Origin: Candidatus Hydrogenedentota bacterium | GTDB lineage: Bacteria; Hydrogenedentota; Hydrogenedentia; Hydrogenedentales; SLHB01 | DNA length: 64,000 bases | NCBI GenBank assembly: GCA_019695095.1 | Contig: JAIBAQ010000008.1 | Location: 9,748-73,747 of the forward strand | Reading direction: 5' to 3' | In this document: positions 38,693 through 54,360 of the stretch, piece by piece | Layout of the letters: every line of letters begins with the position of its first letter | Numbering within the stretch: the stretch's first letter is position 1 | Position numbers and translations under genes: made by a program | Notes under the pieces: model-generated | The model's database searches: none | Seen by the model: only the letters and a program-made list of their open reading frames with translations | What the model was told of the DNA's origin: nothing

Positions 38693-40552
38693 ATGACTCA
38701 AAAGAACTGGACTCATACCGACGTACGCCCGTTCCCCTCACACGCGGACAAACAGACCGCTAACCGGAGTTCCTGGCTGTCGCAGATCGAATGTTCCGCC
38801 GTTTCGATGGTTGACCTCCTGCGTCAACGGGCGCTAAGGCGTCCCGACAGAACCATCTATACCTTCTTGACAGACGGCGAAGAGATTGGTTCTTCCCTCA
38901 CGTATTCGCAATTGGATACGCAAGCGCGCGCCATCGCTGCGACGCTGCAGGAGTTCTGCAAACCTGGCGATCGCGCATTGCTCGTTTTCCCTCCCGGGCT
39001 TGAATATGTATCCGCATTTTTCGGCTGTTTGTATGCCGGTGTGTTGGCCGTACCCGTCTATCCGCCCGACCCTTCGCGCTTGAAGCGTACGTTGCCACGG
39101 TTCCGCGTCATCGTTGACGACGCACAGCCGTCCGTGGCCCTGACGTGCGCGGCCCTCCTGAACATGGAGCAGGCCCTGGCGCACGCGGACCCAAGTCTTT
39201 CTACACTCCGGTGGATTGCGAGCGACAAGGTGAATCCCAAGCTCGCGGAAGCGTGGGAAGACCCCACGATCATGCCGGACCACATCGCCTTTCTGCAGTA
39301 CACCTCCGGCTCCACGGCCAATCCCAAAGGCGTGATGGTCAGCAACGGAAATCTCCTCTTCAACTTGCACGACATGAGCCGGTATTTCGACGACACGGAA
39401 GAGAACTGCCTTGTAACGTGGCTGCCAACGTACCACGACATGGGCCTCATCCACAGTCTGCTGCATCCTTTATACAAAGACTATCCCTGCTACTCCATGT
39501 CTCCGATGGCGTTTCTGCAACGTCCTTACCGATGGTTGCGCGCTATTTCCAAGTTTCGGGCTACCACAAGTGTGGCTCCGAACTTCGCGTACGACCTGTG
39601 CGTGAGAAAAATTACCCCCGAACAGCGGGACGTGCTTGACCTGAGTAGCTGGCGTTCGGCCGGAAACGGAGCCGAACCGGTTCGCCCCGAAACGCTGGAA
39701 CGGTTCTACAACACCTTTAAGCAGTGCGGATTCCGGTGGCGTGCCATTACGCCCGGTTACGGTTTGGCGGAAGCGACGCTTGAGGTATCCCAGACCTCGC
39801 ACGAGGAAGGTCCGACGTTTCTGCCCATCAAATCGGATGAGCTGGAGCGGCACCGCGCCGTCGAGGCACAGAAGCCGGGGCCCGGTGTTCGCGTGCTGGT
39901 TAGTTGCGGGCGTCCTTCCAAGGATACACGGGTCATTATCGTCGATCCGGAATCGTGCCTTCAGTGTACCCCCGATACCGTCGGCGAGATTTGGGTAGCT
40001 GGCCCGACCGTCGCACAGGGGTATTGGCGTCGCGCGGAGGATACGCGGGAAACCTTCCAGGCTTGTCTAGCCGACTCCGGTGAAGGACCGTTCCTGCGGA
40101 CCGGCGACCTGGGCTTCATGAAAGACGGCTATCTTTTCGTTACGGGCCGCATTAAGGATATGATTATCATCGATGGGTTCAACCACTATCCCCAGGATAT
40201 TGAGCGGACCGTCGAACTCAGCCATTCGGCCGTGCGGCCGGGGTGTTGCGCCGCCTTTTCCATTGAGGAAGGCGGCCAGGAACGTCTCATCGTCGTCAGC
40301 GAAGTGGCTGAAACCGTCCAGCGCGACGTATCGGCTTCCGCGGACAGCGGCCAGACCCAGGGGATGGTGGAGCCGAAGGAAGTCATTACGGCGATTCGCC
40401 GGGCAGTTTCGGAGTGTCACGACCTCCGTGTGTTTAAAGTATGCCTGATCGAACCAAGAAGTATTCACAAGACAACCAGCGGGAAAATCCAGCGGCAAGC
40501 GTGCCGGTCGGCTTTTCTCGATGGGGTGCATCGGGTGGTAGCCTGCGAGTGA
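38693..40552 (+). CDS. Fatty acyl-AMP ligase (FAAL; FadD32/FAAL-type adenylation enzyme), the loading enzyme for the downstream PKS
   Basis: 619 aa. AMP-binding core TYTSGSTANPKGVMVSNGNL (A3), GYGLAEATL (A5), YRTGDLGF (A7). FAAL-style N-terminus and insertion. No CoA-ligase C-terminal extension recognised. Confidence 0.85.
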   Translation: MTQKNWTHTDVRPFPSHADKQTANRSSWLSQIECSAVSMVDLLRQRALRRPDRTIYTFLTDGEEIGSSLTYSQLDTQARAIAATLQEFCKPGDRALLVFPPGLEYVSAFFGCLYAGVLAVPVYPPDPSRLKRTLPRFRVIVDDAQPSVALTCAALLNMEQALAHADPSLSTLRWIASDKVNPKLAEAWEDPTIMPDHIAFLQYTSGSTANPKGVMVSNGNLLFNLHDMSRYFDDTEENCLVTWLPTYHDMGLIHSLLHPLYKDYPCYSMSPMAFLQRPYRWLRAISKFRATTSVAPNFAYDLCVRKITPEQRDVLDLSSWRSAGNGAEPVRPETLERFYNTFKQCGFRWRAITPGYGLAEATLEVSQTSHEEGPTFLPIKSDELERHRAVEAQKPGPGVRVLVSCGRPSKDTRVIIVDPESCLQCTPDTVGEIWVAGPTVAQGYWRRAEDTRETFQACLADSGEGPFLRTGDLGFMKDGYLFVTGRIKDMIIIDGFNHYPQDIERTVELSHSAVRPGCCAAFSIEEGGQERLIVVSEVAETVQRDVSASADSGQTQGMVEPKEVITAIRRAVSECHDLRVFKVCLIEPRSIHKTTSGKIQRQACRSAFLDGVHRVVACE

Positions 40553-40628
40553 GGCGGCGCGTGGGTGCGTCGCATGGCGCCATGACCCGCGTGCGCATGA
40601 TTAGCCTGTCTTCGCGCGTTTCCGCGCA

Positions 40629-43600
40629 TTGGTGGAGTTTATATTCATCGTGAAGACCAAAGAGGTCATTCAAGAATGGCTTGTGTCGCGTCTTGCCGAA
40701 GAACTCGGTATCGACAAATCGGCCATTGATCCACGTGAGTCATTTGACAGCCTGGGATTGTCCTCGCGCGACGCCGTGACCCTTTCCGGGGACCTTGAGG
40801 ATTGGCTCACCCATCGGCTATCGCCAACCATCCTATGGGAATACCCGACCATTGAGACCATGTCGCGTTACCTCGCCGAACTGGATGCGGGCGGAAACGG
40901 CAAGACGCAAACGTTTGAAAGCCCCGCCCCGGCGGAACCTCGTACGAAGTCATTGAACGAACCGATTGCCATAGTCGGCATCGGTTGCCGGTTCCCCGGC
41001 GCATCGGGTCCAGACGAATACTGGAAGCTCCTTTGCGACGAACGCGATGCCATTCGCGATGTGCCCGCAGACCGCTGGGACAACGACTCGTTGTATCATC
41101 CCGATCCTGCCACGCCCGGGAAGATGTACACGCGGCGGGGCGGATTTGTCGACGCCATCGATCAGTTCGATGCGTCATTCTTTGGCGTGTCGCCGCGAGA
41201 AGCTGCGCGCATGGATCCCCAGCAACGCCTGCTTATGGAGACGGCCTGGGAGGCCCTCGAACATGCGGGCATCGCGCCCGATTCGCTAGCGGGCTCAGCC
41301 ACGGGCGTTTTCGTCGGCATCAGTTCCAACGATTATTCGCAGCGTCAATTCAGCGACGTGGCCCACGTGGACGCGTATGCCGGTACCGGGAACGCGCACA
41401 GCCTCGCCCCAAATCGTATCTCCTATTTCCTGGACCTGCGCGGTCCAAGCTACGCGGTGGACACCGCATGCTCTTCTTCGCTTGTGGCCATCCACAACGC
41501 GGCAATCAGTCTGCGCCTTGGCGAATGCAACCTCGCCATCGCGGGGGGCGTCAACGCGCTGCTGTCGCCTGAAGTCAATATGGTCTTTTCCCATGCCCGC
41601 ATGATGTCGCCAGACGGCAAGTGCAAGACCTTCGATGCCTCCGCCGACGGCTACGTGCGCGGTGAAGGCTGCGGCGTCGTCATACTCAAGCGTCTCGCCG
41701 ATGCGCAAACCGATGGCGACACGGTCATCGCCGTAATTCGCGGTACCGCCGTGAATCACGATGGCCGCAGCAATGGCCTTACGGCGCCCAACGGCCTCGC
41801 TCAGCAGGCCGTGATTCGGCAAGCCTTGGCCAACGCAGGCATCGAACCGGGTCAAGTGGGATACGTTGAAGCCCACGGAACCGGCACCTCGCTCGGCGAT
41901 CCGATTGAGGTCGATGCGCTGAAGGCCGTCCTGCTCCCGGGCCGGGGCCGAGACCAGCGCTGCTTGCTTGGATCCGTGAAGACCAATATCGGACATTTGG
42001 AAGCGGCCGCCGGCGTGGCTGGTTTGATTAAGACGGCCCTTATTCTCAAGCACGGCATGATTCCGAGTCATTTGAACCTGAAGCAGGTCAATCCGCTTAT
42101 CAAACTCGACAACACTCCCATTGAAATCGTGACCTCGCCTCAGGTCTGGGCGCGCGGCAATGACCGGCGGTTTGCGGGCGTGAGTTCATTTGGTTTTGGC
42201 GGGGCCAATGCGCACGTCATACTTGAAGAGCCCCCGCAGCAATTCCCGGATTCGCGTGAGACCACCGAGTCTGGCCCGCGTCGCCGCGTGTTGGCGTTGT
42301 CTGCGCAAACCGATACGGCGCTGAAGGCCCTTGCGCAACGATACGCCGAATGTCTTAGCGAGAACCCGTCGTCCTCGGTCGCCGATGTGTGCGCGACGGC
42401 CAATTCGGGCCGCGCTAGCTTCGACCACCGTATCGCCGTAGTTGCCGATACGACGCACGAACTGTCCGATCGCCTCGCCGCGTATGCACAGAGCGGAAAG
42501 AGCACGGGAGTATTCATCGGAGAAACCAAGCGTTCTGAATCGCCGAAGATCGCCTTTTTGTTTACGGGGCAGGGCGCACAGTTTGCTGGCATGGGCCGCC
42601 AATTGTTCGAGCTAGAGCCTGTGTTTCGCGAGGCCCTGCTCGAGTGTGACGAGATTCTTCAGAAGTATTTGACGCGGCCCCTCTTGTCGGTCATGCATCC
42701 CAAGGAGGGCGAGTCCTCGCCTATCGACGAGACCGCGTTCACGCAGCCATCTCTCTTTGCGTTCGAATACGCGATGGCGAGATTGTGGATGTCGTGGGGA
42801 ATCGTCCCCGACTTTGTTCTGGGCCATAGCGTTGGCGAATACGTGGCGGCCTGCATTGCAGGCGCGATGAGCCTGCCCGACGGACTTCGCCTCATCGCCG
42901 AGCGCGCCCGTCTGATGCAAGCGCTGCCTGCTGGCGGGGCCATGGCTGCCGTCATGTCCGATCGCGACACCGTAGCCGCCGTTCTCGAACCCTACCGCGA
43001 TCGCGTGTCCATCGCCGCCGCAAACGGTCCCAAGAATACCGTCGTGTCCGGCGCGGGCGACAGTGTTGATGCCGTGCTCAAAGCGCTGGAAGAGAAAGGC
43101 ATCGCCAATCGAAAGCTCGTCGTGTCACACGCGTTTCACTCGCCGTTGATGGAGCCGATGCTCGACGAGTTTGAATCTACCGCCGCCCGGTTGCAGTTCG
43201 ACGTTCCGAAGATTCCTGTTATCTCTAACCTGACGGGTAAGCTCGTGGACTCGTCGTTCCGGTACGACGCCATGTATTGGCGCAATCATGTGCGACAGGC
43301 GGTGCAGTTTGCCGATGGCATGAACGCCCTCAACGATGCGGGCGTCCAGGTTCTGCTCGAAGTGGGACCGCAACCGGTTCTCATCGGCATGGGCAAGAAG
43401 TGTGTGTCGAACAACAGTCTTGTCTGGATATCGTCTCTGAAGAAGGGGCAGGAGGAATGGGCTTCTGTCATCGACGGCGTTGCTGAACTCTACGTCCGTG
43501 GCGCGCGCTTTGACTGGAAGCGCTTCTATGCGAGCGCGAATCCGAAGAGAGTGGCGTTGCCGACCTATCCCTTTGAGCGCAAGCGTCATTGGCTCGATGT

Positions 43601-46600
43601 TCCGCGCAAGCAGGTGTCCGCGGACACTACGGCTGCTCCCCAGCCAGACACAGCACCGGATACGCCGGTGGCGGACCTTCTTTACGAAATCCAATGGCGG
43701 CCAAAGTCCAACTTGGACAGAATGCCCATTCGACGTCCAATCGACTTTGTGCCCGAACCTCAGACTATCAAGCACGCCGTCGACACGCACGCGGCCCGTT
43801 TGGTCGAGGAGCATCAGTTAGCAACGATTGCGGGCGTAAACGATGCGCTTGAGTCCCTAAGTCTGTCTTATATCGTCGAGGCGCTCGGACAACTCGGTTG
43901 GAATCCCGGACCCGGCGAACGTTTCTCTGCGGCGAGTCTGTCCGCGAGCTTGGGTGTTGTTCCTCTCCACGCGCGCCTTTTCAAACGGCTCCTTGAGATC
44001 CTCGCCGAAGAAGGATTTCTGCGCGCCGATGGCGAAGACTTTGTTGTCGATAAACCCATCGCTGCGGCTCCTTCCACGCGGATTCATGCAGAAACGTTGC
44101 GTGCCTATTCCGTTTCGGAAACCGAACTGACGATGCTGGGCCGATGCGGGGCGAACCTCGCCAATGTATTGAAAGGCACGGCCGACCCGTTGCAGGTGCT
44201 TTTCCCAGGCGGTTCATTCGACGAGGCGGAACGCCTGTACGAGCAGTCTCCGTTCGCGCGCGTCTACAACTTGCTGGTCCAAGAGACGATTACCCGCGCG
44301 CTTGAGCGCTTGCCAAAGAACAAGGTTGTGCGTGTGCTTGAGATTGGCGCCGGTACCGGCGGAACCACTTCTTACGTGCTCCGCGCTTTACCAGACGCCA
44401 GCGAATATGTATTCACCGACATGTCGAGCATGTTCCTTGCGCGTGCTGAGAAAAAGTTCGCCTCGCACTCGTGCATGCGTTATGCGCTGCTCGATATCGA
44501 ATCCGACCCCGTGACCCAAGGTTTCTCTTCTCATCAGTTTGATGTCGTCGTGGCGGCCAATGTACTCCATGCCACCGCCGACTTGTCGCGTACGCTTGCG
44601 AACGCGCGAAAACTGCTCGCTCCCGGCGGCTTGATGATTCTGTTGGAAGGCACTTCGCCCATCCGTTGGCTCGATCTTACGTTTGGACTTACCGAAGGGT
44701 GGTGGAAGTTTACCGACACTACGCTGCGTCCAAACCATGCGCTGCTCCACCCGACCCGCTGGATGCAGGTCCTGCGCGCCCAAGGTTTTTCAGACGTTGT
44801 CGCTATGCCACCCGAAAATATCGCCGGCGTCGACATGACGAAGCAGACAGTCATCCTCGCGCGCGCATCGGCGGACACTTCGGAAAGCGAGTCAATGCCT
44901 GTTGTCTCGAAGTCTTCGGACTCGTGGATGATTCTCGCGAACGAGGTTGATGCGGCGAAATCGGCTTCCGATTGCATCCTCAATCGAGGCGGACAATGCG
45001 CTATTGTGCGAACTGGCGAGGCCTTCGCGCACAACGCGAATGAGTGGACCATTCGCGCGGACAACGCGTCAGACTACGAGCGGGTGATCCGAGAATGCGG
45101 TGAGGCACTAAAAAGGCCCATAGACCGAATACTATGTTTGCCTGCGTCGAGCGCCACCGATAATTCGGCACTTCATGCAATGCATGCCAGCCTTTCGGCG
45201 ACCTTGCTTGTGCAGTCCCTCGCCAACGTGCGTCCCCCCACGCCACCCCGTGTCTATTTCGCCACGCGAAATGCCCAGAGTGTTGCGGGTGAATCGACTG
45301 ACTTCGCGTCCGCATCCGTTTGGGGCATCGGCCGGAGTCTGGCCGCCGAACATCCTGAATTCTGGGGTGGACTGATTGACCTTGACGCCGGAGCGGCCGC
45401 GAGCGATCTAATTGACGCTGTGCTAAGCGCGGAAGGCGAAGATCAGATGGCACTGCGCGATGGCACGCGATTTGTCGCACGGCTTACGTCCTGCGCCAAC
45501 GCCACAAAGGCACCTTTGTCGCGCACGTTCGACGCAAACGCGGCGTACTTGGTGACGGGCGGCTTGGGCGGAATCGGCTTGCGTGTGGCCAAGTGGATGG
45601 CTGAACGCGGCGCGCACCACCTATTGCTTGTCAATCGTACGCCACTCCCTGCTCGCGATCTGTGGCCGCAACTGGAACCTGGTTCCGATGCGCGTGCGCG
45701 AGTGGACGCCATTCAATCGCTGGAGGCGCTCGGAGTAAAGGTATATACGCCGTCGTGCGACATCGGCGACCAACACGCGTTGGATGCGATGTTGCGTGCG
45801 TTCCGTGAAGAGTCCGGATTGACCATCAAAGGTGTTGTGCATGCAGCGGGCGTGCTGAAGAATCAAAGCTTCATAAACTCCGATAACGATACGTTACGCG
45901 CCGTCATGCGGCCAAAGGTAGATGGCACTCTTGCCTTGCACCGTGCGTTTGCTGACGCTTCGCTCGATTTCTTCGTTCTGTTTTCCTCCGGGACCTCCGT
46001 TTTCGGTTCTCCCGGTCAGAGCAACTACGCCGCGGCCAATGCATTCATGGATTCGCTGGCGCACGCGCGCCGCGCCGCCGGTCTGCCCGCCGTGAGCATC
46101 AATTGGGGGCCGTGGGCCGAAGTGGGCATGGTTGCGGATTTGGATGAACAGTCGCGCCAGAACATGCCCGGCGTAGAGTTCCTTCGACCGGAAGTGGGAG
46201 TGCGAGCATTCGAAGCGGCACTTTTACTTGATTCACCGCAAGTCACAGTGCTGCAAATCGACTGGTCTCGCTTCTTTCAGGCATTCGGCGGCGAATCGCC
46301 CAGTCCTCTCCTAGACACCTTCGCCAAGAGGGCCGCGCGCAAATCGCCTGCCGCCATGCCGCAGCTTTCTTCGTCTCAATCTGCAGGCTTGCTCGCCAAG
46401 CTGGCGAGCGCGTCCGCAAGCGAACGTCAATCGCAGCTTGAGTCGTATCTCAAGGAACATCTCGGGCGAATCCTGATGATTGACGCTGCTTCCATTCGCG
46501 AAGACGCGAACTTCATGGAACTGGGTCTCGATTCGCTCATGGCTATGGAATTGCTGAAGAGCATCGAGCGCGAGTTCCGTTTCCATATCTATCCGCGCGA

Positions 46601-48596
46601 GATCTTCGACCGGCCCAACGTGCGCGCGCTTGCCCAATATCTTGCGGGCGAAGTGGAGCGTGCGACCGGTCAAGTCAGGCCCGCCGCGGATGCCGCGTCA
46701 GACGCGCGCGAAGTGCAGAAGGCGCTTCAAGCCGGGTCCGGCTCGCTTAAAATCAAAGCGTCGGCAGTCGCTCCGTCGAAGAAGATCCCAGGCGCGGTGT
46801 TCCTGTTATCGACGCCCCGCGCCGGTTCGACGCTCCTACGCGTCATGCTTGCCGGACATCCCCAGTTGTTCTGTCCGCCTGAACTTCATCTTCTGCCTTT
46901 TGCATCGATGAAGGAACGCGCCGAAGCACTTGGTATGAGTTATCTCGACGAAGGCGTGCAGCGCGCGTTCATGGAATTGAAAGGTTTGGACGCTGATGCT
47001 GGTAAGCGTCTGATCGACGAAATGACGCAGCAGGACGTTCCGATTCAGGACGTGTACGCGCAGTTGCAGCAAGCCGCGAATGGCCGAATAATCGTCGACA
47101 AGTCTCCGTCGTATGCAGCGGATATCGAGACGCTTGAGCGCGGTGAGTTGTTGTTCGATGGGGCGAAATACGTCCATCTGGTGCGTCACCCCTACTCGAT
47201 GATCGAGTCGTACGTTCGCATCCGCCTCGACAAACTCATGGGTGCCGACAAACTAGATCCCATTGCCGTCGGCGAGCACGTGTGGGCCTTGAGCAATAGC
47301 AACGCGTTGCGATTCGGAAGACAAATCGATCCGAGCCGGTTCCACATCGTGCGCTACGAAGACCTGGTCTCGAATCCGGAAGCCGTGATGCGCCGCTTGC
47401 TCGAGTTTCTGGGACTTCCCTGGGACCCGAATGTCTTGAAGCCGTACGAAGGAAAGCGGATGACCGACGGCATCTACGCAGAATCTCGGCCGACCGGCGA
47501 TCCTCGTTTTCACTTGCACAAGAGCATTGAATCTGAGCTTGGCGAGGTGTGGCGCAAAATCGATCTGGGAAGGCCCCTCGGCGGATTCGTGCGGCGCATC
47601 GCGCCCGAATTCGACTATGAATTGCCGAACGAGAACATCAAGCCGAAGTCTCAACAGACTCCTTCGGATACGCTTGTGCCCATAAAGCCGGTCGGTTCAA
47701 AGCCACCGTTGTTCCTGATACATCCAGCGGGCGGACTCGTGTTTCCGTACTATGCTTTGATCCCGTACTTTGATGCGGATCAACCCTGTTACGGCATCCA
47801 GGATCCCGCGCTCGAAGCGGAGCACGTGGAGCAAGCCAAGACGGAGGACATGGCCGCGCGGTACGTGGAGATTATTCGCGGCATCGAACCGAAAGGTCCG
47901 TACTACCTTGCAGGCTGGTCCTTTGGCGGCACCCTCGCATTCGAGATCGCGCAGCAGTTCCTGCGCGCGGGCGACCAGGTCGCTATGCTATGTCTCATCG
48001 ATACGGAGATTCCGACATCGCGCGCATCGCGAAACAAGGGTCTGATGCACCGCCTGAAAATGCTGGGCACTCAGATTTACACCGTGGTTGTGGGTGCTCC
48101 GTTTACATTGCCCTATATTCGCGACGGCATCTATCTCGTCTTTGCGACGTTGCTTCGCCGAAAGAAGACTGGTGGACAGGAAGGCCCAAGCATCCGCGAA
48201 TACGCAAACTGGGCGTGGAACGACGCGTTGCGCCAATACTTCATCAGCCATTCGGAGATCGCGGGCGTGGTCGAAGCCAATTCCCGCCTCAATATGATTC
48301 GTTTGTCGATGACGCGTCGCGTGATGCAGTTGCTCAACATTCATATCCACGCGCGCGACAACTACAATGCGGGACCCTATCCCGGCGAAATCACGGTGCT
48401 GGTTGCCAAACAGCAGCCAAAGGTCCGCGAGATGTGGAACGATCCCACGCTCGGCTGGGAACGCATCGCACCCGGTCGAGTCAAAGCGGTCCCCGTCCCT
48501 GGGAATCACGTCGTGCTCTTGGCGAGACCGTACATCGACGATACAGCGGCGGCCATCAACCGGTGCCTCGACGAGGCGCAATCGAAACAGTTGTAG
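40629..48596 (+). CDS. Type I PKS, single module, domain order ACP-KS-AT-(MT-like)-KR-ACP-sulfotransferase-thioesterase: CurM/Ols-type terminal-olefin-forming synthase. Probable true start GTG at 40650.
   Basis: Seen directly:
- ACP1 DSLGLSS (Ser ~nt 40749)
- KS DTACSSSLVAIHNA with EAHGTGT and NIGHLE
- AT GQGAQFAGMG and GHSVGE (Ser ~nt 42828)
- Class I SAM-MT motif VLEIGAGTGG
- KR Rossmann YLVTGGLGGIG
- ACP2 LGLDSLMAMELL
- ST 5'-PSB-like LLSTPRAGSTLL plus sulfotransferase core
- TE PPLFLIHPAGG and GWSFGG. Confidence 0.9.
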   Translation: MVEFIFIVKTKEVIQEWLVSRLAEELGIDKSAIDPRESFDSLGLSSRDAVTLSGDLEDWLTHRLSPTILWEYPTIETMSRYLAELDAGGNGKTQTFESPAPAEPRTKSLNEPIAIVGIGCRFPGASGPDEYWKLLCDERDAIRDVPADRWDNDSLYHPDPATPGKMYTRRGGFVDAIDQFDASFFGVSPREAARMDPQQRLLMETAWEALEHAGIAPDSLAGSATGVFVGISSNDYSQRQFSDVAHVDAYAGTGNAHSLAPNRISYFLDLRGPSYAVDTACSSSLVAIHNAAISLRLGECNLAIAGGVNALLSPEVNMVFSHARMMSPDGKCKTFDASADGYVRGEGCGVVILKRLADAQTDGDTVIAVIRGTAVNHDGRSNGLTAPNGLAQQAVIRQALANAGIEPGQVGYVEAHGTGTSLGDPIEVDALKAVLLPGRGRDQRCLLGSVKTNIGHLEAAAGVAGLIKTALILKHGMIPSHLNLKQVNPLIKLDNTPIEIVTSPQVWARGNDRRFAGVSSFGFGGANAHVILEEPPQQFPDSRETTESGPRRRVLALSAQTDTALKALAQRYAECLSENPSSSVADVCATANSGRASFDHRIAVVADTTHELSDRLAAYAQSGKSTGVFIGETKRSESPKIAFLFTGQGAQFAGMGRQLFELEPVFREALLECDEILQKYLTRPLLSVMHPKEGESSPIDETAFTQPSLFAFEYAMARLWMSWGIVPDFVLGHSVGEYVAACIAGAMSLPDGLRLIAERARLMQALPAGGAMAAVMSDRDTVAAVLEPYRDRVSIAAANGPKNTVVSGAGDSVDAVLKALEEKGIANRKLVVSHAFHSPLMEPMLDEFESTAARLQFDVPKIPVISNLTGKLVDSSFRYDAMYWRNHVRQAVQFADGMNALNDAGVQVLLEVGPQPVLIGMGKKCVSNNSLVWISSLKKGQEEWASVIDGVAELYVRGARFDWKRFYASANPKRVALPTYPFERKRHWLDVPRKQVSADTTAAPQPDTAPDTPVADLLYEIQWRPKSNLDRMPIRRPIDFVPEPQTIKHAVDTHAARLVEEHQLATIAGVNDALESLSLSYIVEALGQLGWNPGPGERFSAASLSASLGVVPLHARLFKRLLEILAEEGFLRADGEDFVVDKPIAAAPSTRIHAETLRAYSVSETELTMLGRCGANLANVLKGTADPLQVLFPGGSFDEAERLYEQSPFARVYNLLVQETITRALERLPKNKVVRVLEIGAGTGGTTSYVLRALPDASEYVFTDMSSMFLARAEKKFASHSCMRYALLDIESDPVTQGFSSHQFDVVVAANVLHATADLSRTLANARKLLAPGGLMILLEGTSPIRWLDLTFGLTEGWWKFTDTTLRPNHALLHPTRWMQVLRAQGFSDVVAMPPENIAGVDMTKQTVILARASADTSESESMPVVSKSSDSWMILANEVDAAKSASDCILNRGGQCAIVRTGEAFAHNANEWTIRADNASDYERVIRECGEALKRPIDRILCLPASSATDNSALHAMHASLSATLLVQSLANVRPPTPPRVYFATRNAQSVAGESTDFASASVWGIGRSLAAEHPEFWGGLIDLDAGAAASDLIDAVLSAEGEDQMALRDGTRFVARLTSCANATKAPLSRTFDANAAYLVTGGLGGIGLRVAKWMAERGAHHLLLVNRTPLPARDLWPQLEPGSDARARVDAIQSLEALGVKVYTPSCDIGDQHALDAMLRAFREESGLTIKGVVHAAGVLKNQSFINSDNDTLRAVMRPKVDGTLALHRAFADASLDFFVLFSSGTSVFGSPGQSNYAAANAFMDSLAHARRAAGLPAVSINWGPWAEVGMVADLDEQSRQNMPGVEFLRPEVGVRAFEAALLLDSPQVTVLQIDWSRFFQAFGGESPSPLLDTFAKRAARKSPAAMPQLSSSQSAGLLAKLASASASERQSQLESYLKEHLGRILMIDAASIREDANFMELGLDSLMAMELLKSIEREFRFHIYPREIFDRPNVRALAQYLAGEVERATGQVRPAADAASDAREVQKALQAGSGSLKIKASAVAPSKKIPGAVFLLSTPRAGSTLLRVMLAGHPQLFCPPELHLLPFASMKERAEALGMSYLDEGVQRAFMELKGLDADAGKRLIDEMTQQDVPIQDVYAQLQQAANGRIIVDKSPSYAADIETLERGELLFDGAKYVHLVRHPYSMIESYVRIRLDKLMGADKLDPIAVGEHVWALSNSNALRFGRQIDPSRFHIVRYEDLVSNPEAVMRRLLEFLGLPWDPNVLKPYEGKRMTDGIYAESRPTGDPRFHLHKSIESELGEVWRKIDLGRPLGGFVRRIAPEFDYELPNENIKPKSQQTPSDTLVPIKPVGSKPPLFLIHPAGGLVFPYYALIPYFDADQPCYGIQDPALEAEHVEQAKTEDMAARYVEIIRGIEPKGPYYLAGWSFGGTLAFEIAQQFLRAGDQVAMLCLIDTEIPTSRASRNKGLMHRLKMLGTQIYTVVVGAPFTLPYIRDGIYLVFATLLRRKKTGGQEGPSIREYANWAWNDALRQYFISHSEIAGVVEANSRLNMIRLSMTRRVMQLLNIHIHARDNYNAGPYPGEITVLVAKQQPKVREMWNDPTLGWERIAPGRVKAVPVPGNHVVLLARPYIDDTAAAINRCLDEAQSKQL
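44271..44828 (+). other. Embedded SAM-dependent methyltransferase-like domain of the PKS (between AT and KR)
   Basis: Motif I VLEIGAGTGG. Post-I acidic residue (YVFTDMS). Motif II FDVVVAANVLHA. Motif III LLAPGGLMILLE. Confidence 0.6.
46776..47618 (+). other. Sulfotransferase (ST) domain of the PKS
   Basis: PAPS 5'-phosphosulfate-binding-loop-like TPRAGST. Sulfotransferase-family core resembling the CurM/Ols ST (RYEDLVSNPEAVMRRLLEFLGLPWD). Confidence 0.8.
47691..48548 (+). other. C-terminal thioesterase (TE) domain of the PKS
   Basis: alpha/beta-hydrolase nucleophile elbow GWSFGG. LFLIHPAGG start. Terminal position after ST, as in CurM/Ols. Confidence 0.8.
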
Positions 48597-48624
48597 GGCG
48601 AGACATCCGACGTCTCGCGCTATT

Positions 48625-49081
48625 GTCATTCTGAGTTCGCCTGCGGCGGACGAAGAATCTGGCTTAAGTCACATCTGTTTCCTCCAAATTCTTCGATTCA
48701 GTCCTTAGAAACACGGCAAGAAGAAGGCCGTATCCTTCAGGAGCGACGGACCCTGCGTGAACGGTAATTGGTGGAAGAGACAACAGCTAAGTGGGAATCC
48801 CGCACTCAGTATCGGGCAGGATGCCCAGTTCCATTTCTCCAACTACTCACGTGGTGCCTTCTCCGGAGTGCCATAGGCACGACAGACTCCAGCCTGGGGT
48901 GAGATTCGCGTCCCAAACGCGAATCGATACCCCAGGTTCCAGCCCACGCCCAACGTGAGCCCTGTAAGGGCGAAAGCAACTTAGTAGTCTGCTTCTTAGG
49001 GGTTCGCCTGAGGCGGACGTAAAACATGGCTTCAAGGACGTGTTTCTCTGCCACTTTCCCCGCTGTATCTAGAATGACAAA
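48625..49081. repeat. ~460-bp element bounded by 12-13 bp terminal inverted repeats (TTGTCATTCTGAG ... CTAGAATGACAA) with internal direct repeat GTTCGCCTG(C/A)GGCGGACG. MITE-like or structured RNA locus.
   Basis: Read directly. IR-L at 48625-48637, IR-R at 49069-49080. 17-18 nt direct repeat at 48642-48659 and 49002-49019. Internal hairpin GATTCGCGTCCCAAACGCGAATC. Confidence 0.45.
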
Positions 49082-49181
49082 AGACAATGTCCGCCTGGAC
49101 GAGCGGAAAGTTGACTATCGCGATACGCCTTAAGCGATACTTGGTCCGCAAGAGATATCTACTCGTACAAGGCGCATACCC

Positions 49182-49925
49182 ATGCACATAGACGACACTT
49201 GGCAACAGCCTCCCAACGAACTCACGCTTGTCGTTGGCGATGTTCACGTGTGGCGTGTGGTATTCGAACGCTTTACCGCCAGGCAGGACTCGTTTCTATC
49301 CGTCCTCAATGAAGACGAACGTGAGCGCGCGGATCGATTCCATTTCGAATCGGGACGCTCGCAGTACGTCGTTACGCGCGCGGCACTTCGCATGACGTTG
49401 TCGCGATACACCGGCATTGAAGCCCAATCGCTCGAATTCGAGTACAGCACCCACGGCAAACCCTCCTTGAAGGGCGATGGGCCGCCGCAATTCAATGTCG
49501 CGCACTCCGGTGGTTTGGCTCTAATTGCGGTTACAAAAGAAGGGCTGATTGGCGTCGATGTGGAAGCGCGCCGGCGCGACTTCGCCGGTCAGCGTATTGC
49601 GAATCGCTTCTTCTCCGCGCGCGAAGCGGGAGCGCTGCGCAATCTGCCCACTGACCAGCAGGAACAAGGTTTTTTGAACTGCTGGACGCGCAAGGAAGCC
49701 TACATCAAGGCGCGGGGAGAAGGACTATCCTGCCCGCTGGATTCGTTCGATGTAACGTTGGCGCCCGGCGAACCGGCTCGCTTGCTTAATGTCAAAGGCG
49801 ATCCCAACGAAGCGGCGAATTGGAATCTATGCGCTCTGCCAATGGACGACGGTATTGCGGCGGCTGTCGCCCTGCGAGGACCCCTGGAAAACGTGTGCTG
49901 TTGGGATTGGACCGACAGCACCTAG
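49182..49925 (+). CDS. 4'-phosphopantetheinyl transferase, Sfp type
   Basis: 247 aa. PPTase motifs FNVAHSGGLALIAV and WTRKEAYIKARGEGLS. Positioned to activate the two ACP domains of the adjacent PKS. Confidence 0.85.
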   Translation: MHIDDTWQQPPNELTLVVGDVHVWRVVFERFTARQDSFLSVLNEDERERADRFHFESGRSQYVVTRAALRMTLSRYTGIEAQSLEFEYSTHGKPSLKGDGPPQFNVAHSGGLALIAVTKEGLIGVDVEARRRDFAGQRIANRFFSAREAGALRNLPTDQQEQGFLNCWTRKEAYIKARGEGLSCPLDSFDVTLAPGEPARLLNVKGDPNEAANWNLCALPMDDGIAAAVALRGPLENVCCWDWTDST

Positions 49926-49934
49926 CTTCTATTT

Positions 49935-51701
49935 CTACTCGGGCTTCAGTCGTATGCTCTGAGCATTCATAACCGCATAGCTTGCCATTTTCTCTGGCTT
50001 GATGGTGATCGTATGCTTGCCTGCCGGGATGTCCGTCTTGCCCAATGCCACCGCTTTGTAATCCTTCCAGGTACCTGTTCCCGCGACGGAACCTTCGGCG
50101 ACTTGCTGGTCATCAAGCAGTATTGCGAACTGACTTCCGGCGGCGCTGTTCTCGCATGAGTAAGTGAGCTCGATTCCGAACGAACCGGCCTTCTCGATTT
50201 CAATCGTCCAATTCACGGTATCCGCGGGATTGGTCCAGAATCCGATGTCGTCCACCTTGTGTCCATCGGTCTGGTAGCGGGCCGTATCGCCATGAATAGT
50301 CGCATCAACTGCATGCAGCACGAACTCGCCGTTTGTCCCCGCAAGTATCGGCGACTCCACCACGGACGGCGTTCCTTCGATCTCCAGCGCCACTACCGAC
50401 GCGATCGCGTCGGGTGCCGCCGCTGGCACATGCACGGTAACGCGATCGTCTCCCTTCACGGTCTTGAGTGGCGCGTGTTCTGAGTCGGACAGCAGATCGG
50501 CCTTCTTCACCGCGTTCGTCAGCCCCGGCACAACAAGTTCCCCGCTGGACGGCCAATCGAACACGTGAAGATACAAAACGCCGGGCTTGCTTGTGCAACG
50601 GCCCCACGGCAATCGCCGGAACGGACTCGCGGTCGTGCCGTAGATGCTCTCGCCATTCACACGCATCCAATCCCCCATCGCCTTCAATCGCTCGACACTC
50701 GCCTCCGGAATCAGACCTTCCGCAGTCGGCCCCACATTCAACAGAAAGTTGCCGCCCTTGCTTACAATGTCGATCAACTTCCGGATCAGATCTTCCTTGG
50801 ACTTCCAATTCGCATCGCCGGACTTGTACCCCCACGTGTCGTTCATCGTCATGCAGACTTCCCAATCGCGATTGGGAATGCCCGTTGGCGGAATGTACTG
50901 CTCGGGCGTGTCGTAGTCCTGCGGAATCTGAATGCGGTTGTTGATGATGATATTGGGCTGTATGCCGCGAATCATGGAGACGACTTCGTTGGAACGCAAC
51001 TCATCCGGTTTGTGTTCCCAACCTCCGTCAAACCAAATGATGCCGATGGGTCCGTACTTGGTGAGCAGTTCTTTGAGTTGACCTTCCATATAGTCGATGT
51101 ACCGGTTCAGATCCGCCCCATCTTTCGGACGCGTATCCCACGGGCGTGGGCTTCCTTCCCCGCGCGGAAGATAATCGGGGTGATGCCAGTCGAGAATGGA
51201 GTGATACCAGCACATGGTCATGTCTTCGCGTCTCACCGCATCGGACAGCTCTTTCATGATGTCGCGCTTAAACGGCGTACTCATGACATCGTAGTCCGTG
51301 AGCGCGCTGTCGAATAGACAGAATCCGTCGTGGTGCTTGCTCGTGATGACGACATATTTCATCCCCGCATCTTTCGCCAGTTTTGCCCATTCGTCCGCGT
51401 TGAACTTAACGGGATTGAACTCGTGAATGAGCGGTTCGTAGTCGGCGACAGGGATCTTTCCGTTGAACATGATCCATTCACCCGCACTTTCCACGGGTTT
51501 GCCTTTCCAAACACCCGCCGGAACCGCGTAGAGTCCCCAATGGATGAACATGCCGAACTTGGCTTCGCGCCACCATGCCATGCGCGCGTCGCGTTGCTCT
51601 TTGGTTTCCTCCTGCGCGTGAGATGCGCCTGTGAGAATCATGGACGCGACGATTGCCAACGAGGCCAGACAGAACAGATCTCTCCGGATGCGATTCAACA
51701 T
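49935..51701 (-). CDS. Secreted alpha-L-fucosidase (GH29) with C-terminal carbohydrate-binding (F5/8 type C-like) domain
   Basis: Signal peptide. GH29 signature MAWWREAKFGMFIHWGLYAVPAG...VVITSKHHDGFCLFDS. C-terminal beta-sandwich. Confidence 0.85.
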   Translation of the reverse strand: MLNRIRRDLFCLASLAIVASMILTGASHAQEETKEQRDARMAWWREAKFGMFIHWGLYAVPAGVWKGKPVESAGEWIMFNGKIPVADYEPLIHEFNPVKFNADEWAKLAKDAGMKYVVITSKHHDGFCLFDSALTDYDVMSTPFKRDIMKELSDAVRREDMTMCWYHSILDWHHPDYLPRGEGSPRPWDTRPKDGADLNRYIDYMEGQLKELLTKYGPIGIIWFDGGWEHKPDELRSNEVVSMIRGIQPNIIINNRIQIPQDYDTPEQYIPPTGIPNRDWEVCMTMNDTWGYKSGDANWKSKEDLIRKLIDIVSKGGNFLLNVGPTAEGLIPEASVERLKAMGDWMRVNGESIYGTTASPFRRLPWGRCTSKPGVLYLHVFDWPSSGELVVPGLTNAVKKADLLSDSEHAPLKTVKGDDRVTVHVPAAAPDAIASVVALEIEGTPSVVESPILAGTNGEFVLHAVDATIHGDTARYQTDGHKVDDIGFWTNPADTVNWTIEIEKAGSFGIELTYSCENSAAGSQFAILLDDQQVAEGSVAGTGTWKDYKAVALGKTDIPAGKHTITIKPEKMASYAVMNAQSIRLKPE

Positions 51702-51736: not shown

Positions 51737-52141
51737 TCACGACCACGTTTGCCGCGTGGCCAACTCAATACTGTTACCGGCGGGGTCGCGGAAGTATATC
51801 GAGTGGCCACCGTTGGGCCAGTCGATTTCCGTTTCGATACGCACGCCCGCTTCACTCAGGCGCACCCGCCAAGATTCCAGCGCTTCCGGTTTCACTTCAA
51901 ACGCGGCATGCCCCGGCCCCGTCGCGCCATGCACCGGAAAGGGCGTCCCCTCCACGGATGTCGCTTCGGGATTGAACACAAGAAACATGCCTTTACCACA
52001 ACGGAAAAAGACGTGACGCCCTTCCATCTTCGCATAGACTTCAAGGCCAATCACGTCACAATAGAAATGCTCCGCCGCTTCCAGATCGGCAGCGTAGACG
52101 CACGTCTCAAGAATGCCTTCAAGTCGTGGCATTGCCATCAT
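51737..52141 (-). CDS. VOC family protein (glyoxalase/bleomycin resistance-like)
   Basis: 134 aa. GLEVYAKMEGRHVFFRCG...GHAAFEV...HSIYFRDPAGNSIEL. Start overlaps the stop of the upstream gene by 4 nt. Confidence 0.8.
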   Translation of the reverse strand: MMAMPRLEGILETCVYAADLEAAEHFYCDVIGLEVYAKMEGRHVFFRCGKGMFLVFNPEATSVEGTPFPVHGATGPGHAAFEVKPEALESWRVRLSEAGVRIETEIDWPNGGHSIYFRDPAGNSIELATRQTWS

Positions 52142-52863
52142 CCTGCGTTGAGGTCTTCTATGAACCTTGTCTCGGGGGTCAGCATGTCCGGCTTAACGTC
52201 CAGCTTCGTAGCGATCATGTAAATGAGCGTGGTCCAAATTTCCTGATCGTCTCTTTCCTGCACGGGGACGGCAAGTTCGCTTCGAGTGCTGTTGATGACT
52301 ACAGATCGGGTCGTTATGCAACTGGAAGGCACATAGCGCGCGAACGGAAGCGTGAGTTCATCAAGAATTAACAAAAACAACGGTGTGCAGAATGCGACAA
52401 TCAGGAGGCCTACGAATAGGCCGCCAACGAATTCGCAGAAAGAACCTGCCGTAGCGATTATAACAATGGCTATTGGCATAAGTGTCAGCGCAAAGACCAG
52501 AGTTAAACCAGCGTTCAGCCAGTCAATAAGGCGAGGCCGTGCCAACTGCGGCAGTCCGTGGCCGAGCGACATCTCTAGTTCTTTCCACGCCTTACGTCTT
52601 TTCCTTCGCGGAACCAGTGTCTCCAGTGGTGTGTCCAGCGAGATCTCGCGTGTACTCTTCCCCGAGATTTCGGCTAAGGCTGAGCGGGTTTTCAAGAATG
52701 AGGCAAGCCTGCGGCACTTGTGATAAGGACGAGTCGCAACCTGATCGCAGATCCACGCATACAGACTACCTACGGTCCGATAGTCGATAAACCCGTCGTT
52801 ATCCATCCGGACGTCGAACTCTTCTTCGACGGCCATGATGAGTTCCGTGAGCTCCAATCCCAT
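52138..52863 (-). CDS. Membrane protein whose N- and C-termini are ACP-like (apparently circularly permuted acyl-carrier-protein fold lacking the phosphopantetheine Ser)
   Basis: AAGGAG Shine-Dalgarno 9 nt upstream of the ATG. N-terminus GLELTELIMAVEEEFDVRMDNDGFIDY resembles ACP helix II-III. C-terminus IATKLDVKPDMLTPETRFIEDLNAG resembles ACP helix I up to the DSL position. Central ~60 aa form 2 hydrophobic TM helices. Confidence 0.55.
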   Translation of the reverse strand: MGLELTELIMAVEEEFDVRMDNDGFIDYRTVGSLYAWICDQVATRPYHKCRRLASFLKTRSALAEISGKSTREISLDTPLETLVPRRKRRKAWKELEMSLGHGLPQLARPRLIDWLNAGLTLVFALTLMPIAIVIIATAGSFCEFVGGLFVGLLIVAFCTPLFLLILDELTLPFARYVPSSCITTRSVVINSTRSELAVPVQERDDQEIWTTLIYMIATKLDVKPDMLTPETRFIEDLNAG

Positions 52864-52910
52864 AGGGAATGACTCCTTACCGGTTGGCGGGCAAGGACGG
52901 AGTCCCTACC

Positions 52911-53744
52911 CTATGACGGAAACAGATACTCGATCAATGGCTCCACTTCGCTGAAGTCCGAGACAAGTATATCCGCGCCTGCCTTCGTGAGACGATCCAC
53001 TTTTTCTTCGTTCCAGCCATACCCGCGCAATTCATCCGAGCAAACACCCACGGAAACACAGCCATGCTCGTGAGCCAAGCGAATCTCTACCGGCCCATCG
53101 CCGACCACCAGTACTTCGGTGCCGTGCAGGTCGTGCTGCGCAATGATGTTCTTGATGATCTTCTCTTTGTTGCTTTCCTGGTAGGTGCGGAGCGCTCCCC
53201 AAATCTCTGTGAAATACTGCGCCGCGCCAACGAGCCTCGACTCGTTCTGCACGTCTTCAATATCGGTGCCGCTGAAGATATACATCTCCAGCCCCCGGTC
53301 GTAGAGCGCTTTCACAAATTCCAGCGAACCCTTCACGACCACTTCTCCCACGGGCAAATCACCGGTCTGCAAGCGAGCGATGCGTTCCTTCACGCGCACC
53401 ATCAACCGATCGTTGTAGATCGCCTTGTAGCCGTGCGCGTCGAGTATCTTCTCTTCCGGAACAAACCCATAGTCGCGCACCATCTTGACGAGATGTTCCA
53501 TCTGCAGGATCGTGTTGATGCCCGTCGACTCGGCGATGTAGTCCTCGACTGCTTTCTCAATCTCCGGTGTGTGCGGATGATCGCCGCAGATCATCTCCAC
53601 GCAGAGCGGCCCCATAACCTGCTGCCAGCCTTCGCGCAACAGGCTGACAGTGCCGTCGAAATCGAAGAGTCCGTATTTGAACTTTCCCCGCTTGGTTTCG
53701 CGAAGAATTCGAATGTCGGTTCCGGGAATGTACTGAGTCGTCAT
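52911..53744 (-). CDS. HAD superfamily hydrolase (phosphatase-like)
   Basis: Motif I LFDFDGTVS. Motif IV VVGDGPVEIRLAHEHG. The ATG overlaps the apt stop (ATGA). Confidence 0.8.
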   Translation of the reverse strand: MTTQYIPGTDIRILRETKRGKFKYGLFDFDGTVSLLREGWQQVMGPLCVEMICGDHPHTPEIEKAVEDYIAESTGINTILQMEHLVKMVRDYGFVPEEKILDAHGYKAIYNDRLMVRVKERIARLQTGDLPVGEVVVKGSLEFVKALYDRGLEMYIFSGTDIEDVQNESRLVGAAQYFTEIWGALRTYQESNKEKIIKNIIAQHDLHGTEVLVVGDGPVEIRLAHEHGCVSVGVCSDELRGYGWNEEKVDRLTKAGADILVSDFSEVEPLIEYLFPS

Positions 53745-54268
53745 TATTCATCCACCACAATTTCCACCAGCGCATGCACGGGATAGCCGCTCAGCCGCTC
53801 GCGTCCCCCAAGGGGTAGTAACTCGATTACAAACGCAATTTCCACTATCTCCGCCCCCAGACGTTCCACCATGTTGGCTACAGCCTTCATGGTCCCGCCG
53901 GTGGCGAGCAAATCGTCAATCAAAATCGTCCGGTCGCCCTTCTTCAAGGCGTCCGCATGAATCTCCAACACGGCCGTGCCGTATTCGAGCTCATACTCTT
54001 CGCAAATCGTGTCCGCCGGAAGCTTACCCTTCTTGCGCGCCGGAACAAACGGTACGTCCATTGCATACGCAAGTGCTGCCCCAAAAATGAAGCCCCGCGC
54101 TTCCGCGCCCACGATCGCCGTAATACCCTTGCCGCCATACCGCTTCTTCCAGCCATCGATGATGTACTTGAACGCCTCCGGATACTGGAGCAACGTCGTC
54201 ACATCCTTGAACTGAATTCCCGGCTTGGGAAAATCCGGCACATTGCGGATCAGCGGGACAAGGTCCAT
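53744..54268 (-). CDS. apt: Adenine phosphoribosyltransferase (start at MDLVPLIRN)
   Basis: N-terminus MDLVPLIRNVPDFPKPGIQFKDVTTLL. PRPP-binding motif ILIDDLLATGGT. The track ORF extends upstream to 54328. Confidence 0.9.
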   Translation of the reverse strand: MDLVPLIRNVPDFPKPGIQFKDVTTLLQYPEAFKYIIDGWKKRYGGKGITAIVGAEARGFIFGAALAYAMDVPFVPARKKGKLPADTICEEYELEYGTAVLEIHADALKKGDRTILIDDLLATGGTMKAVANMVERLGAEIVEIAFVIELLPLGGRERLSGYPVHALVEIVVDE

Positions 54269-54360
54269 TACTTCTGTCTCCTTCGGTGCATGGTTTGCAT
54301 ACCGCGCCCCGCGAATGGGGACGTGCATCTTGCAGCGTTACCGTTCAATGCGATGCCGCG

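Follow-up and report, generated by a model that had tools for sequence, protein, structure and literature searches.

A permuted, serine-less acyl-carrier-protein-like family with modular inserts, represented in Candidatus Hydrogenedentota

Few small proteins have been studied as much as acyl carrier protein (ACP), which is defined by a single serine at the beginning of helix II. In the protein described here, the ACP-like chain is cut at the position of this serine. It is encoded on the minus strand, at 52138..52863, of a 64,000-nucleotide stretch of Candidatus Hydrogenedentota DNA (contig JAIBAQ010000008.1, positions 9,748 to 73,747), the whole of which we call the window; the product is referred to as the window protein. 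The open reading frame (ORF) comprises 241 codons and a TGA stop, and the protein runs MGLELTELIMAVEEEFDVRMDNDGFIDYRTVGSLYAWI ... IWTTLIYMIATKLDVKPDMLTPETRFIEDLNAG; both terminal sequences quoted in an earlier reading of the DNA, made without database searches (the sequence-only reading), are present in it as given.

The window protein shares with AcpP (PF00550; TIGR00517/PRK00982) helix I, loop 1 (DLxAx), helix II (LDxVELVMxxEEEF), helix III and helix IV (TVGxL), with about 40–57% identity per half to solved ACPs and higher values in minimal members of its family. Partner proteins recognise ACP by the surface of helix II, with its LVM core and acidic flanks (PMC3340395). In contrast to AcpP, the helices of the window protein run II-III-IV ... 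I instead of the native I-II-III-IV, the backbone is open between the equivalents of D35 and S36, glycine stands in place of serine, about 160 residues lie between helix IV and helix I, and the protein is predicted to be membrane-anchored. Repeated ACP domains in one chain are known from the tandem ACPs of polyunsaturated fatty acid synthases, aryl-polyene systems and polyketide synthases (PKSs) (for example PMC3585217). The window protein, which can be written as (II-III-IV)(I'-II'-IV')(I), is probably also built from repeated domains, and tandem ACPs are the type of precursor from which duplication and truncation at both ends give a circular permutant. However, tandem ACPs have native order, keep the serine in each domain and are parts of soluble synthases, whereas the window protein has a split outer copy and a probably degenerate inner copy that carries a predicted membrane hairpin. 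A backbone-cyclised Escherichia coli ACP is reported to stay functional (Volkmann et al. 2010, J Biol Chem 285:8605, a reference of PMC3340395), which suggests that the fold survives a joining of the native termini, a structural precondition for a permutant. That protein is engineered, keeps Ser36 and carries acyl groups, in contrast to the natural family described here, which opens the chain at the serine position.

Permuted order of the outer domain

The two ends of the window protein match ACPs in permuted order. With the N-terminal half (N-half) alone, residues 3–38 align to positions 32–67 of the 67 in the Pfam PP-binding model (PF00550) with 29.1 bits against a cut-off of 20.8. The NCBIfam ACP models take up both ends, residues 3–40 at positions 39–76 of 79 and residues 207–240 at positions 2–35 of 77 (TIGR00517), with E-values of 2e-10 to 1e-9, and the best of them are AcpP-type, not PKS or nonribosomal peptide synthetase carrier domains. 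The solved ACPs 1x3o, 2ehs and 2kwl also align permuted, with residues 206–240 of the query corresponding to ACP residues 3–37 (this pairing includes 1x3o) and residues 3–42 to ACP residues 36/40–75. The sequence-only reading had taken the N-terminus for ACP helices II–III and the C-terminus for helix I up to the residue before the DSL motif; both assignments hold, as residues 3–40 match helices II–IV and residues 206–240 match helix I and loop 1.

The cut site was located with a junction test, in which artificial sequences with the C-terminal half (C-half) fused to the N-half were scored against the ACP models. When the C-half was fused directly to Gly2, residues 5–77 of the fusion were collinear with positions 4–76 of the 79 in NF002148 with no indel (58.7 bits, E 3.9e-16). 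The fusion that kept Met1 scored 52.5 bits, a loss of 6 bits, and required one insertion. The sequence in its native order gave a half-match only; with TIGR00517 it scored 37.9 bits, compared to 55.9 bits when un-permuted, both of which are below the AcpP equivalog cut-off of 70.45. As the fusion is collinear without the methionine, the break in the chain falls between G241, the Asp35 equivalent, and G2, the Ser36 equivalent, with M1 as an extra residue. Thus, the earlier claim that head-to-tail joining of the ends yields a complete ACP is borne out, while the description of the junction as G-M in place of D-S needs correction: the phosphopantetheine serine of D-S-L is indeed absent, but its position is held by Gly2, where the chain is broken, and not by the methionine.

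Structure prediction, which had been proposed as a check, gave a confident AlphaFold2 (AF2) model when a family alignment of 134 sequences was supplied, with a predicted local distance difference test score (pLDDT) of 92.9 and a predicted template modelling score (pTM) of 0.72; the single sequence gave an unusable model (pLDDT 51). The helices of the model stand at ACP positions, namely residues 3–16 (II), 24–27 (III), 31–44 (IV), 49–67 (I'), 89–100 (II'), 185–197 (IV') and 206–221 (I), with the predicted membrane hairpin formed by helices 111–137 and 142–174. The C-terminal coil of 20 residues after helix I has a pLDDT of 96–98, suggesting that it is docked on a folded domain like loop 1 of ACPs. 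A mean-field direct coupling analysis of 289 fused sequences placed all of its top-ranked non-gap couplings between the halves, a result that is confounded by gap artefacts and subfamily structure. The packing of the two halves into one four-helix ACP fold is inferred, with strong though indirect support from this model and from the minimal family members described below.

The gene itself is real and under purifying selection. The window protein is identical (100%) to K1Y02_02750, a protein of a metagenome-assembled genome (MAG) of Candidatus Hydrogenedentes at NCBI. The nearest in-frame stop upstream of the ATG is a TAG at 52906-52908 with no start codon between, so the N-terminus cannot be extended. 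The strong ribosome-binding site and the junction with the downstream VOC gene that had been read from the DNA are both present (Table 1), and read-through or a frameshift at the stop to continue an ACP is ruled out, since the downstream frame encodes the VOC protein. Orthologues of 240 amino acids (aa), 65–67% identical and with the same ends, were found in two independent assemblies (one NCBI MAG and one JGI metagenome; loci L001 and L002), and the HAD-X-VOC arrangement, where X is the ACP-like gene, is common to all three. The ratio of nonsynonymous to synonymous substitution rates (dN/dS) between the two orthologues is 0.063/0.200 = 0.32, and 0.13 for the N-half alone; for the window gene against them dN is 0.23 and dS is saturated. 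An assembly rearrangement across 52100-52900, which the sequence-only reading had suggested looking for, is excluded by the independent assemblies with the same ends and synteny.

The family, its ends and its length classes

The same permutation recurs in a large number of homologues. A profile of three sequences (the window protein and the two orthologues) was scored against 1.84 billion cluster representatives, giving 1902 representatives at E <= 1e-3 and 696 at E <= 1e-10. The best 150 matches are nearly all 225–250 aa long and align from position 1 to about 239. The alternative that the sequence-only reading had named against itself, coincidental amphipathic helices, did not materialise, as the homologues keep the permutation. 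Its remark that permuted carrier folds are very uncommon is contradicted: the family is large and present in many phyla, undescribed rather than rare.

Both ends are fixed almost to the residue. Among 152 family proteins (profile-search matches, the window protein and the further protein P0003), 125 start with MGL, six with MGM and three with MSL, and the window protein with MGLELTEL. The chain ends exactly three residues past the D-L of a DLGAD-like motif in 123 of the 152, and in EDLNAG in the window protein; the final position is occupied by G in 51, D in 47, S in 14, N in eight and E in six. At the serine position glycine is found in 131 members and serine in three. The window protein thus carries the family signature, with a start of M-G-L-(D/E)-x-x-E and an end of (D/E)-L-x-x-x followed by the stop. 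In an alignment of 134 members (A2), E13 is invariant and M1, G2, L3, E7, F16, T30, G32, C50, F56, R60, R89, W93, P105, L107, W210, D237 and L238 are near-invariant.

Pfam-A (newest models 2025) and NCBIfam (June 2026) hold no model dedicated to the family, only partial ACP matches, and full-text literature searches found no paper on natural permuted ACPs. The PADLOC defence-system and PHROGs phage families gave no match except generic phage ACP families on the N-half. Members are labelled in databases as hypothetical, "acyl carrier protein" or "phosphopantetheine-binding protein", and the ACP-type names stem from the partial PP-binding match alone. The family is large, spread over many phyla and undescribed by Pfam, NCBIfam or the literature found.

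To this set we added a scan of one genome per species with a degenerate DNA pattern for the N-terminal motif, which gave at least 120 loci whose translations all match the family hidden Markov model. In 76 of 116 scanned loci there is no alternative upstream start, and the upstream in-frame stop lies a median of 24 nt away. The scan members come from more than ten phyla (among them Planctomycetota, Acidobacteriota, Verrucomicrobiota, Lentisphaerae, Bacteroidota, Proteobacteria, Cyanobacteria/Melainabacteria, Nitrospirota, Methylomirabilota and Riflebacteria), with further family members in Armatimonadota and Hydrogenedentes. Cultured carriers in the scan include Chitinophaga pinensis (237 aa), Duganella aceris (220 aa), Winogradskyella flava and Croceitalea marina (197 aa) and Bryocella elongata (121 aa). 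The complete ORFs fall into length classes of 82–91 aa (the two halves only; about 27 complete ORFs among the scan loci listed), 119 aa (with a zinc-ribbon insert, CxxC...CPEC), 121 aa (from Acidobacteriaceae), 178–197 aa (with a soluble middle domain and no membrane helices), 217–257 aa (the type of the window protein) and 424 aa (with the middle-plus-hairpin module duplicated).

The shortest and longest classes bear on the fold. Members of 82–91 aa consist of helices II–IV, a linker of about 10–15 residues, and helix I with loop 1, and one of them matches the ACP 2n57 permuted with an E-value of 2.4e-17 (residues 57–86 to ACP 7–36 and residues 3–38 to ACP 38–73). As these proteins are the two halves alone, the halves very probably form one domain. 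The Pelagicoccus mobilis protein P0235 is an example of 85–86 aa. A profile search with the minimal form returned a mix of 85–87 aa permuted proteins and canonical ACPs; among the matches listed, 93 of 120 are permuted, all of which start with MGL, and 77 of the 93 end in D. At the other extreme, members of about 412–424 aa have the middle region and membrane helices duplicated, while the N-half and the C-half each occur once, at the two termini of the chain, which argues that the halves are partners. Long members with this layout include P0004, P0006, P0020, P0036 and P0053 (398–418 aa) and the 424-aa protein of L118, encoded from position 769 (+). The permutation is thus real and conserved across the family, and we are highly confident of its structural identity as permuted, serine-less and ACP-like.

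Two further groups of sequences were observed alongside these classes. In the 119-aa proteins of L065 (from position 703, +) and L082 (6302-6657, -), a four-cysteine, zinc-ribbon-like insert (CxxC...CPECG) between the halves replaces the middle domain. Two canonical ACPs, P0155 (127 aa) and P0156 (136 aa), contain a partial tandem duplication within the chain, with the order helix II to IV, part of loop 1, and once more helix II to IV. Their contigs measure only 536–697 nt, and the two proteins could be products of misassembly or true duplication intermediates of a type able to yield a permutant.

Middle domain, membrane hairpin and neighbouring genes

The halves of the window protein are separated by about 160 residues, of which only 111–174 are the predicted membrane hairpin. 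The sequence-only reading had placed about 60 aa with two transmembrane helices between the ends; the two-helix hairpin stands, while the length of the insert was underestimated. Kyte–Doolittle hydropathy has maxima near residues 128 and 158. There are nine lysines and arginines before the first membrane helix, none in the connecting loop and three after the second, a distribution from which the positive-inside rule predicts that both ends of the hairpin are cytoplasmic. The hairpin and its topology are predictions.

The remainder of the insert is probably a second ACP-like domain, in native order and degenerate. It has its own signature of columns near-invariant in the family (C50, F56, R60, R89, W93, P105 and L107), and a basic motif, PRRKRRKAW (RRxRRxxW), stands at the position of DSL and the start of helix II. 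When the middle-domain profile without the hairpin was compared by hhalign with the un-permuted outer-domain profile, 83 columns aligned collinearly (Prob 88.6%, P 3e-7). Foldseek of the model against the PDB returned nearly all ACPs, over 52–56 columns with a target-normalised TM-score of about 0.55 and about 15% identity, at E-values of 1–6, which are not significant. Foldseek aligns sequentially, so that the permutation is not demonstrable in this way, and the identity of about 15% suggests that the aligned part is the middle domain, not the termini. Pfam gave no match to the middle domain. With an alignment of soluble middle domains from the 178–197 aa class (A5), the top solved-structure match was the NF-kB p105 death domain, with the pattern W..L....LG...TVR.L; a death-like domain was rejected as the identity of the middle domain, as this was the sole such match (E 0.071) and Pfam gave none.

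Two cysteines of the middle domain were noted. The near-invariant C50 (52714-52716) begins helix I' within the motif C-x-[ST]-Q-x-x-F-Y-x-L-R, and the less conserved C182 (52318-52320) precedes helix IV' within P-x-x-C-x-T-V. C50 and C182 could form a redox, metal-binding or acylation site.

The features of the gene and its surroundings are collected in Table 1. The operon apt-HAD-X-VOC-fucosidase is common to close relatives only. An apt-HAD-X-VOC operon had been proposed before and is present at this locus, but it is lineage-specific and absent around distant members. The 588-aa protein at the end of the same-strand run has a syntenic counterpart of identical size in L002, with Pfam matches to GH29 alpha-L-fucosidase and a CBM35-like domain; no link between this fucosidase-type protein and the ACP-like gene upstream is evident. 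Synteny with L002 extends through the fucosidase to a phosphopantetheinyl transferase (PPTase) gene on the opposite strand. The FAAL and PKS architecture of 38693-49925 presumably resembles that of CurM and Ols, which are involved in terminal olefin formation.

Table 1. Features of the permuted ACP-like gene and of its neighbourhood in the window.
Feature	Position	Strand	Basis
Whole gene; encodes the predicted two-domain ACP-like inner-membrane protein	52138..52863	-	ORF listing and sequence
N-half, residues 1–45: S36-equivalent Gly2, then helices II, III and IV of the outer domain	52729..52863	-	Pfam, NCBIfam, solved ACPs, AF2 helices
Residues 46–110: helices I' and II' of the nested, probably ACP-like degenerate domain	52534..52728	-	hhalign, Foldseek
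Predicted membrane hairpin, residues 111–174, between helices II' and IV' of the middle domain	52342..52533	-	Kyte–Doolittle, AF2 helices
Residues 175–200: motif LPFAxxxPxxCxT(V/x)R and helix IV'	52264..52341	-	Alignments A2 and A3; hhalign to ACP helix IV; AF2 helix 185–197
C-half, residues 201–241: helix I and loop 1 of the outer domain; last residue G241 equivalent to D35	52141..52263	-	TIGR00517, 1x3o, AF2 helix 206–221
Shine–Dalgarno AAGGAG, 9 nt 5' of the ATG	52873..52878	-	Sequence
ATGA overlap of the TGA stop with the start of the VOC/glyoxalase-family gene	52138..52141	-	Sequence
HAD-family hydrolase, upstream gene	52911..53744	-	Pfam PF00702, PF13419; synteny with L001
apt, upstream of the HAD gene	53744-54328	-	Overlap TAATG with the HAD gene
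VOC/glyoxalase-family gene, downstream	51737-52141	-	Pfam PF00903; same arrangement in L001 and L002
588-aa protein with signal-peptide-like N-terminus, last gene of the same-strand run	49935-51701	-	Syntenic counterpart in L002
FAAL-type AMP-binding enzyme	38693-40552	+	Pfam
Type I PKS, 2655 aa: KS, AT, C-methyltransferase, KR, ACP, sulfotransferase, thioesterase	40629-48596	+	Pfam
Sfp-type PPTase	49182-49925	+	Pfam; syntenic in L002

Possible function of the permuted domain

Our overall best explanation, which we regard as on balance probable, is that the window protein is an inner-membrane protein with two cytoplasmic ACP-like domains, the outer one permuted, that may act as a cofactor-free ACP mimic. 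After removal of Met1 the chain would start at the Ser36-equivalent glycine, pass through helices II, III and IV, leave the outer domain for about 160 residues, and come back as helix I and loop 1 to stop at the Asp35 equivalent. The intervening stretch would form the second, degenerate ACP-like domain in native order, with the membrane hairpin in the connection between II' and IV'. Lacking the serine, and with its backbone broken at the attachment site, the protein would not be phosphopantetheinylated in the known way and would be no conventional acyl carrier. The acidic recognition helix II is nearly complete in the outer domain, with equivalents of D38, E41, L42-V43-M44, E47, E48 and F50, which suggests that this domain would act as a mimic, docking ACP-binding proteins, or competing with ACP for them, at the membrane surface. 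Its role would then be that of an adaptor or regulator, not a carrier. Taken by itself, the role as a cofactor-free mimic or adaptor at the membrane, which is read from the sequence, is a tentative proposal, possible rather than probable, and the case for the adaptor function is weak.

Several points weigh against this explanation. The contact between the two halves is inferred. The likeness of the middle domain to ACPs is not significant in Foldseek (E 1–6), and a profile search of solved structures placed the ACP 2kwl at E 0.7 and, ahead of it, a death domain at E 0.07, neither of them significant. None of the local neighbours (apt, HAD, VOC and fucosidase) is linked to lipid metabolism, three distant members on large contigs sit in unrelated contexts, and when neighbours were clustered across the 120 loci listed no family occurred in more than four, so that guilt by association is unusable. 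Finally, it is not obvious why a protein that is purely an adaptor would have both ends fixed to the exact residue.

This last point, with the ends lying at the attachment site, keeps alive a reading in which the chain ends are themselves functional groups, although we consider it fairly unlikely. Here the alpha-amine of the glycine, exposed by methionine excision, and/or the C-terminal carboxylate at the serine site would do the chemistry: a substrate would be tethered at a chain end, the glycine would be N-acylated, or the ends would be ligated to close the ACP backbone. The precision of both ends (MGL in 125 and the stop three residues past D-L in 123 of the 152 members), the collinearity of the junction only without the methionine (58.7 against 52.5 bits) and the persistence of the ends as extreme termini in the duplicated 412-aa forms speak for it, and a glycine at position 2 favours methionine excision by methionine aminopeptidase. 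However, no conserved neighbour in the 120 loci listed is a ligase, an ATP-grasp enzyme or an acyltransferase, the last residue is variable, and the fixed ends could go back simply to one ancestral cut and to the same structural constraints under which DSL is conserved in ACPs. An analogy is offered by LysW/ArgW, a small acidic amino-group carrier with a zinc-ribbon-type fold, a conserved C-terminal Glu and ATP-grasp partner genes, in which the substrate is tethered at the C-terminal residue with no prosthetic group. The analogy extends to this terminal chemistry only, as the fold is unrelated and neither the C-terminal Glu nor ATP-grasp partners are seen in the permuted family. That the protein is a carrier without a prosthetic group, or a self-closing ACP, with the new amine and carboxylate as a handle at the classical attachment site for covalent substrate tethering, N-acylation or enzyme-catalysed head-to-tail ligation, we find slightly more doubtful still.

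It is also distinctly unlikely that the N-half pairs with the C-half of another chain, the split fold serving as a device for dimerisation or oligomerisation. Swapping between chains is frequent among split domains, the halves lie about 160 residues apart with a membrane hairpin in this stretch, and the 412-aa forms show that the length of the spacer is free to vary. On the other hand, the linker of about 10–15 residues in minimal members suits closure within one chain, the AF2 monomer is confident throughout (pTM 0.72), and a hairpin with both ends on one side of the membrane, as predicted, brings the halves together.

That the window protein is a true carrier, phosphopantetheinylated at another residue by the Sfp-type transferase encoded two genes away, is highly improbable. 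The PPTase gene (49182-49925) is syntenic in L002 and databases call members of the family "acyl carrier protein" or "phosphopantetheine-binding protein", but glycine holds the serine position in 131 of 152 members and serine in three only, no other serine is among the invariant or near-invariant columns of A2, and the database names rest on the partial PP-binding match. The PPTase was rejected as a partner because its presence is explained by the adjacent FAAL gene and the 2655-aa PKS, which has ACP domains of its own.

A chance likeness of amphipathic helices, or an ORF that is an assembly chimera or pseudogene, is favoured by nothing but the poor single-sequence AF2 model (pLDDT 51) and is refuted by E-values of 1e-9 to 4e-16 against curated ACP models, the presence of the gene in three independent assemblies, hundreds of homologues that match end to end, with more distant ones keeping the same ends, and purifying selection.

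Natural proteins of more than ten bacterial phyla thus keep the ACP sequence and its recognition helix with the chain cut at the serine and glycine in its place. They form a permuted, serine-less ACP-like family with modular inserts, in which a series runs from the two halves to a zinc-ribbon insert, a nested second domain, a membrane hairpin and a duplicated module. The database labels "acyl carrier protein" and "phosphopantetheine-binding protein" are almost certainly wrong functionally. If the window protein and its relatives are ACP mimics, they would add a layer of regulation or scaffolding to ACP-dependent metabolism; if their chain ends are used chemically, they would be a new kind of carrier protein. 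The family is a natural, well-populated example of permutation by duplication and a template for the design of split or permuted ACPs.

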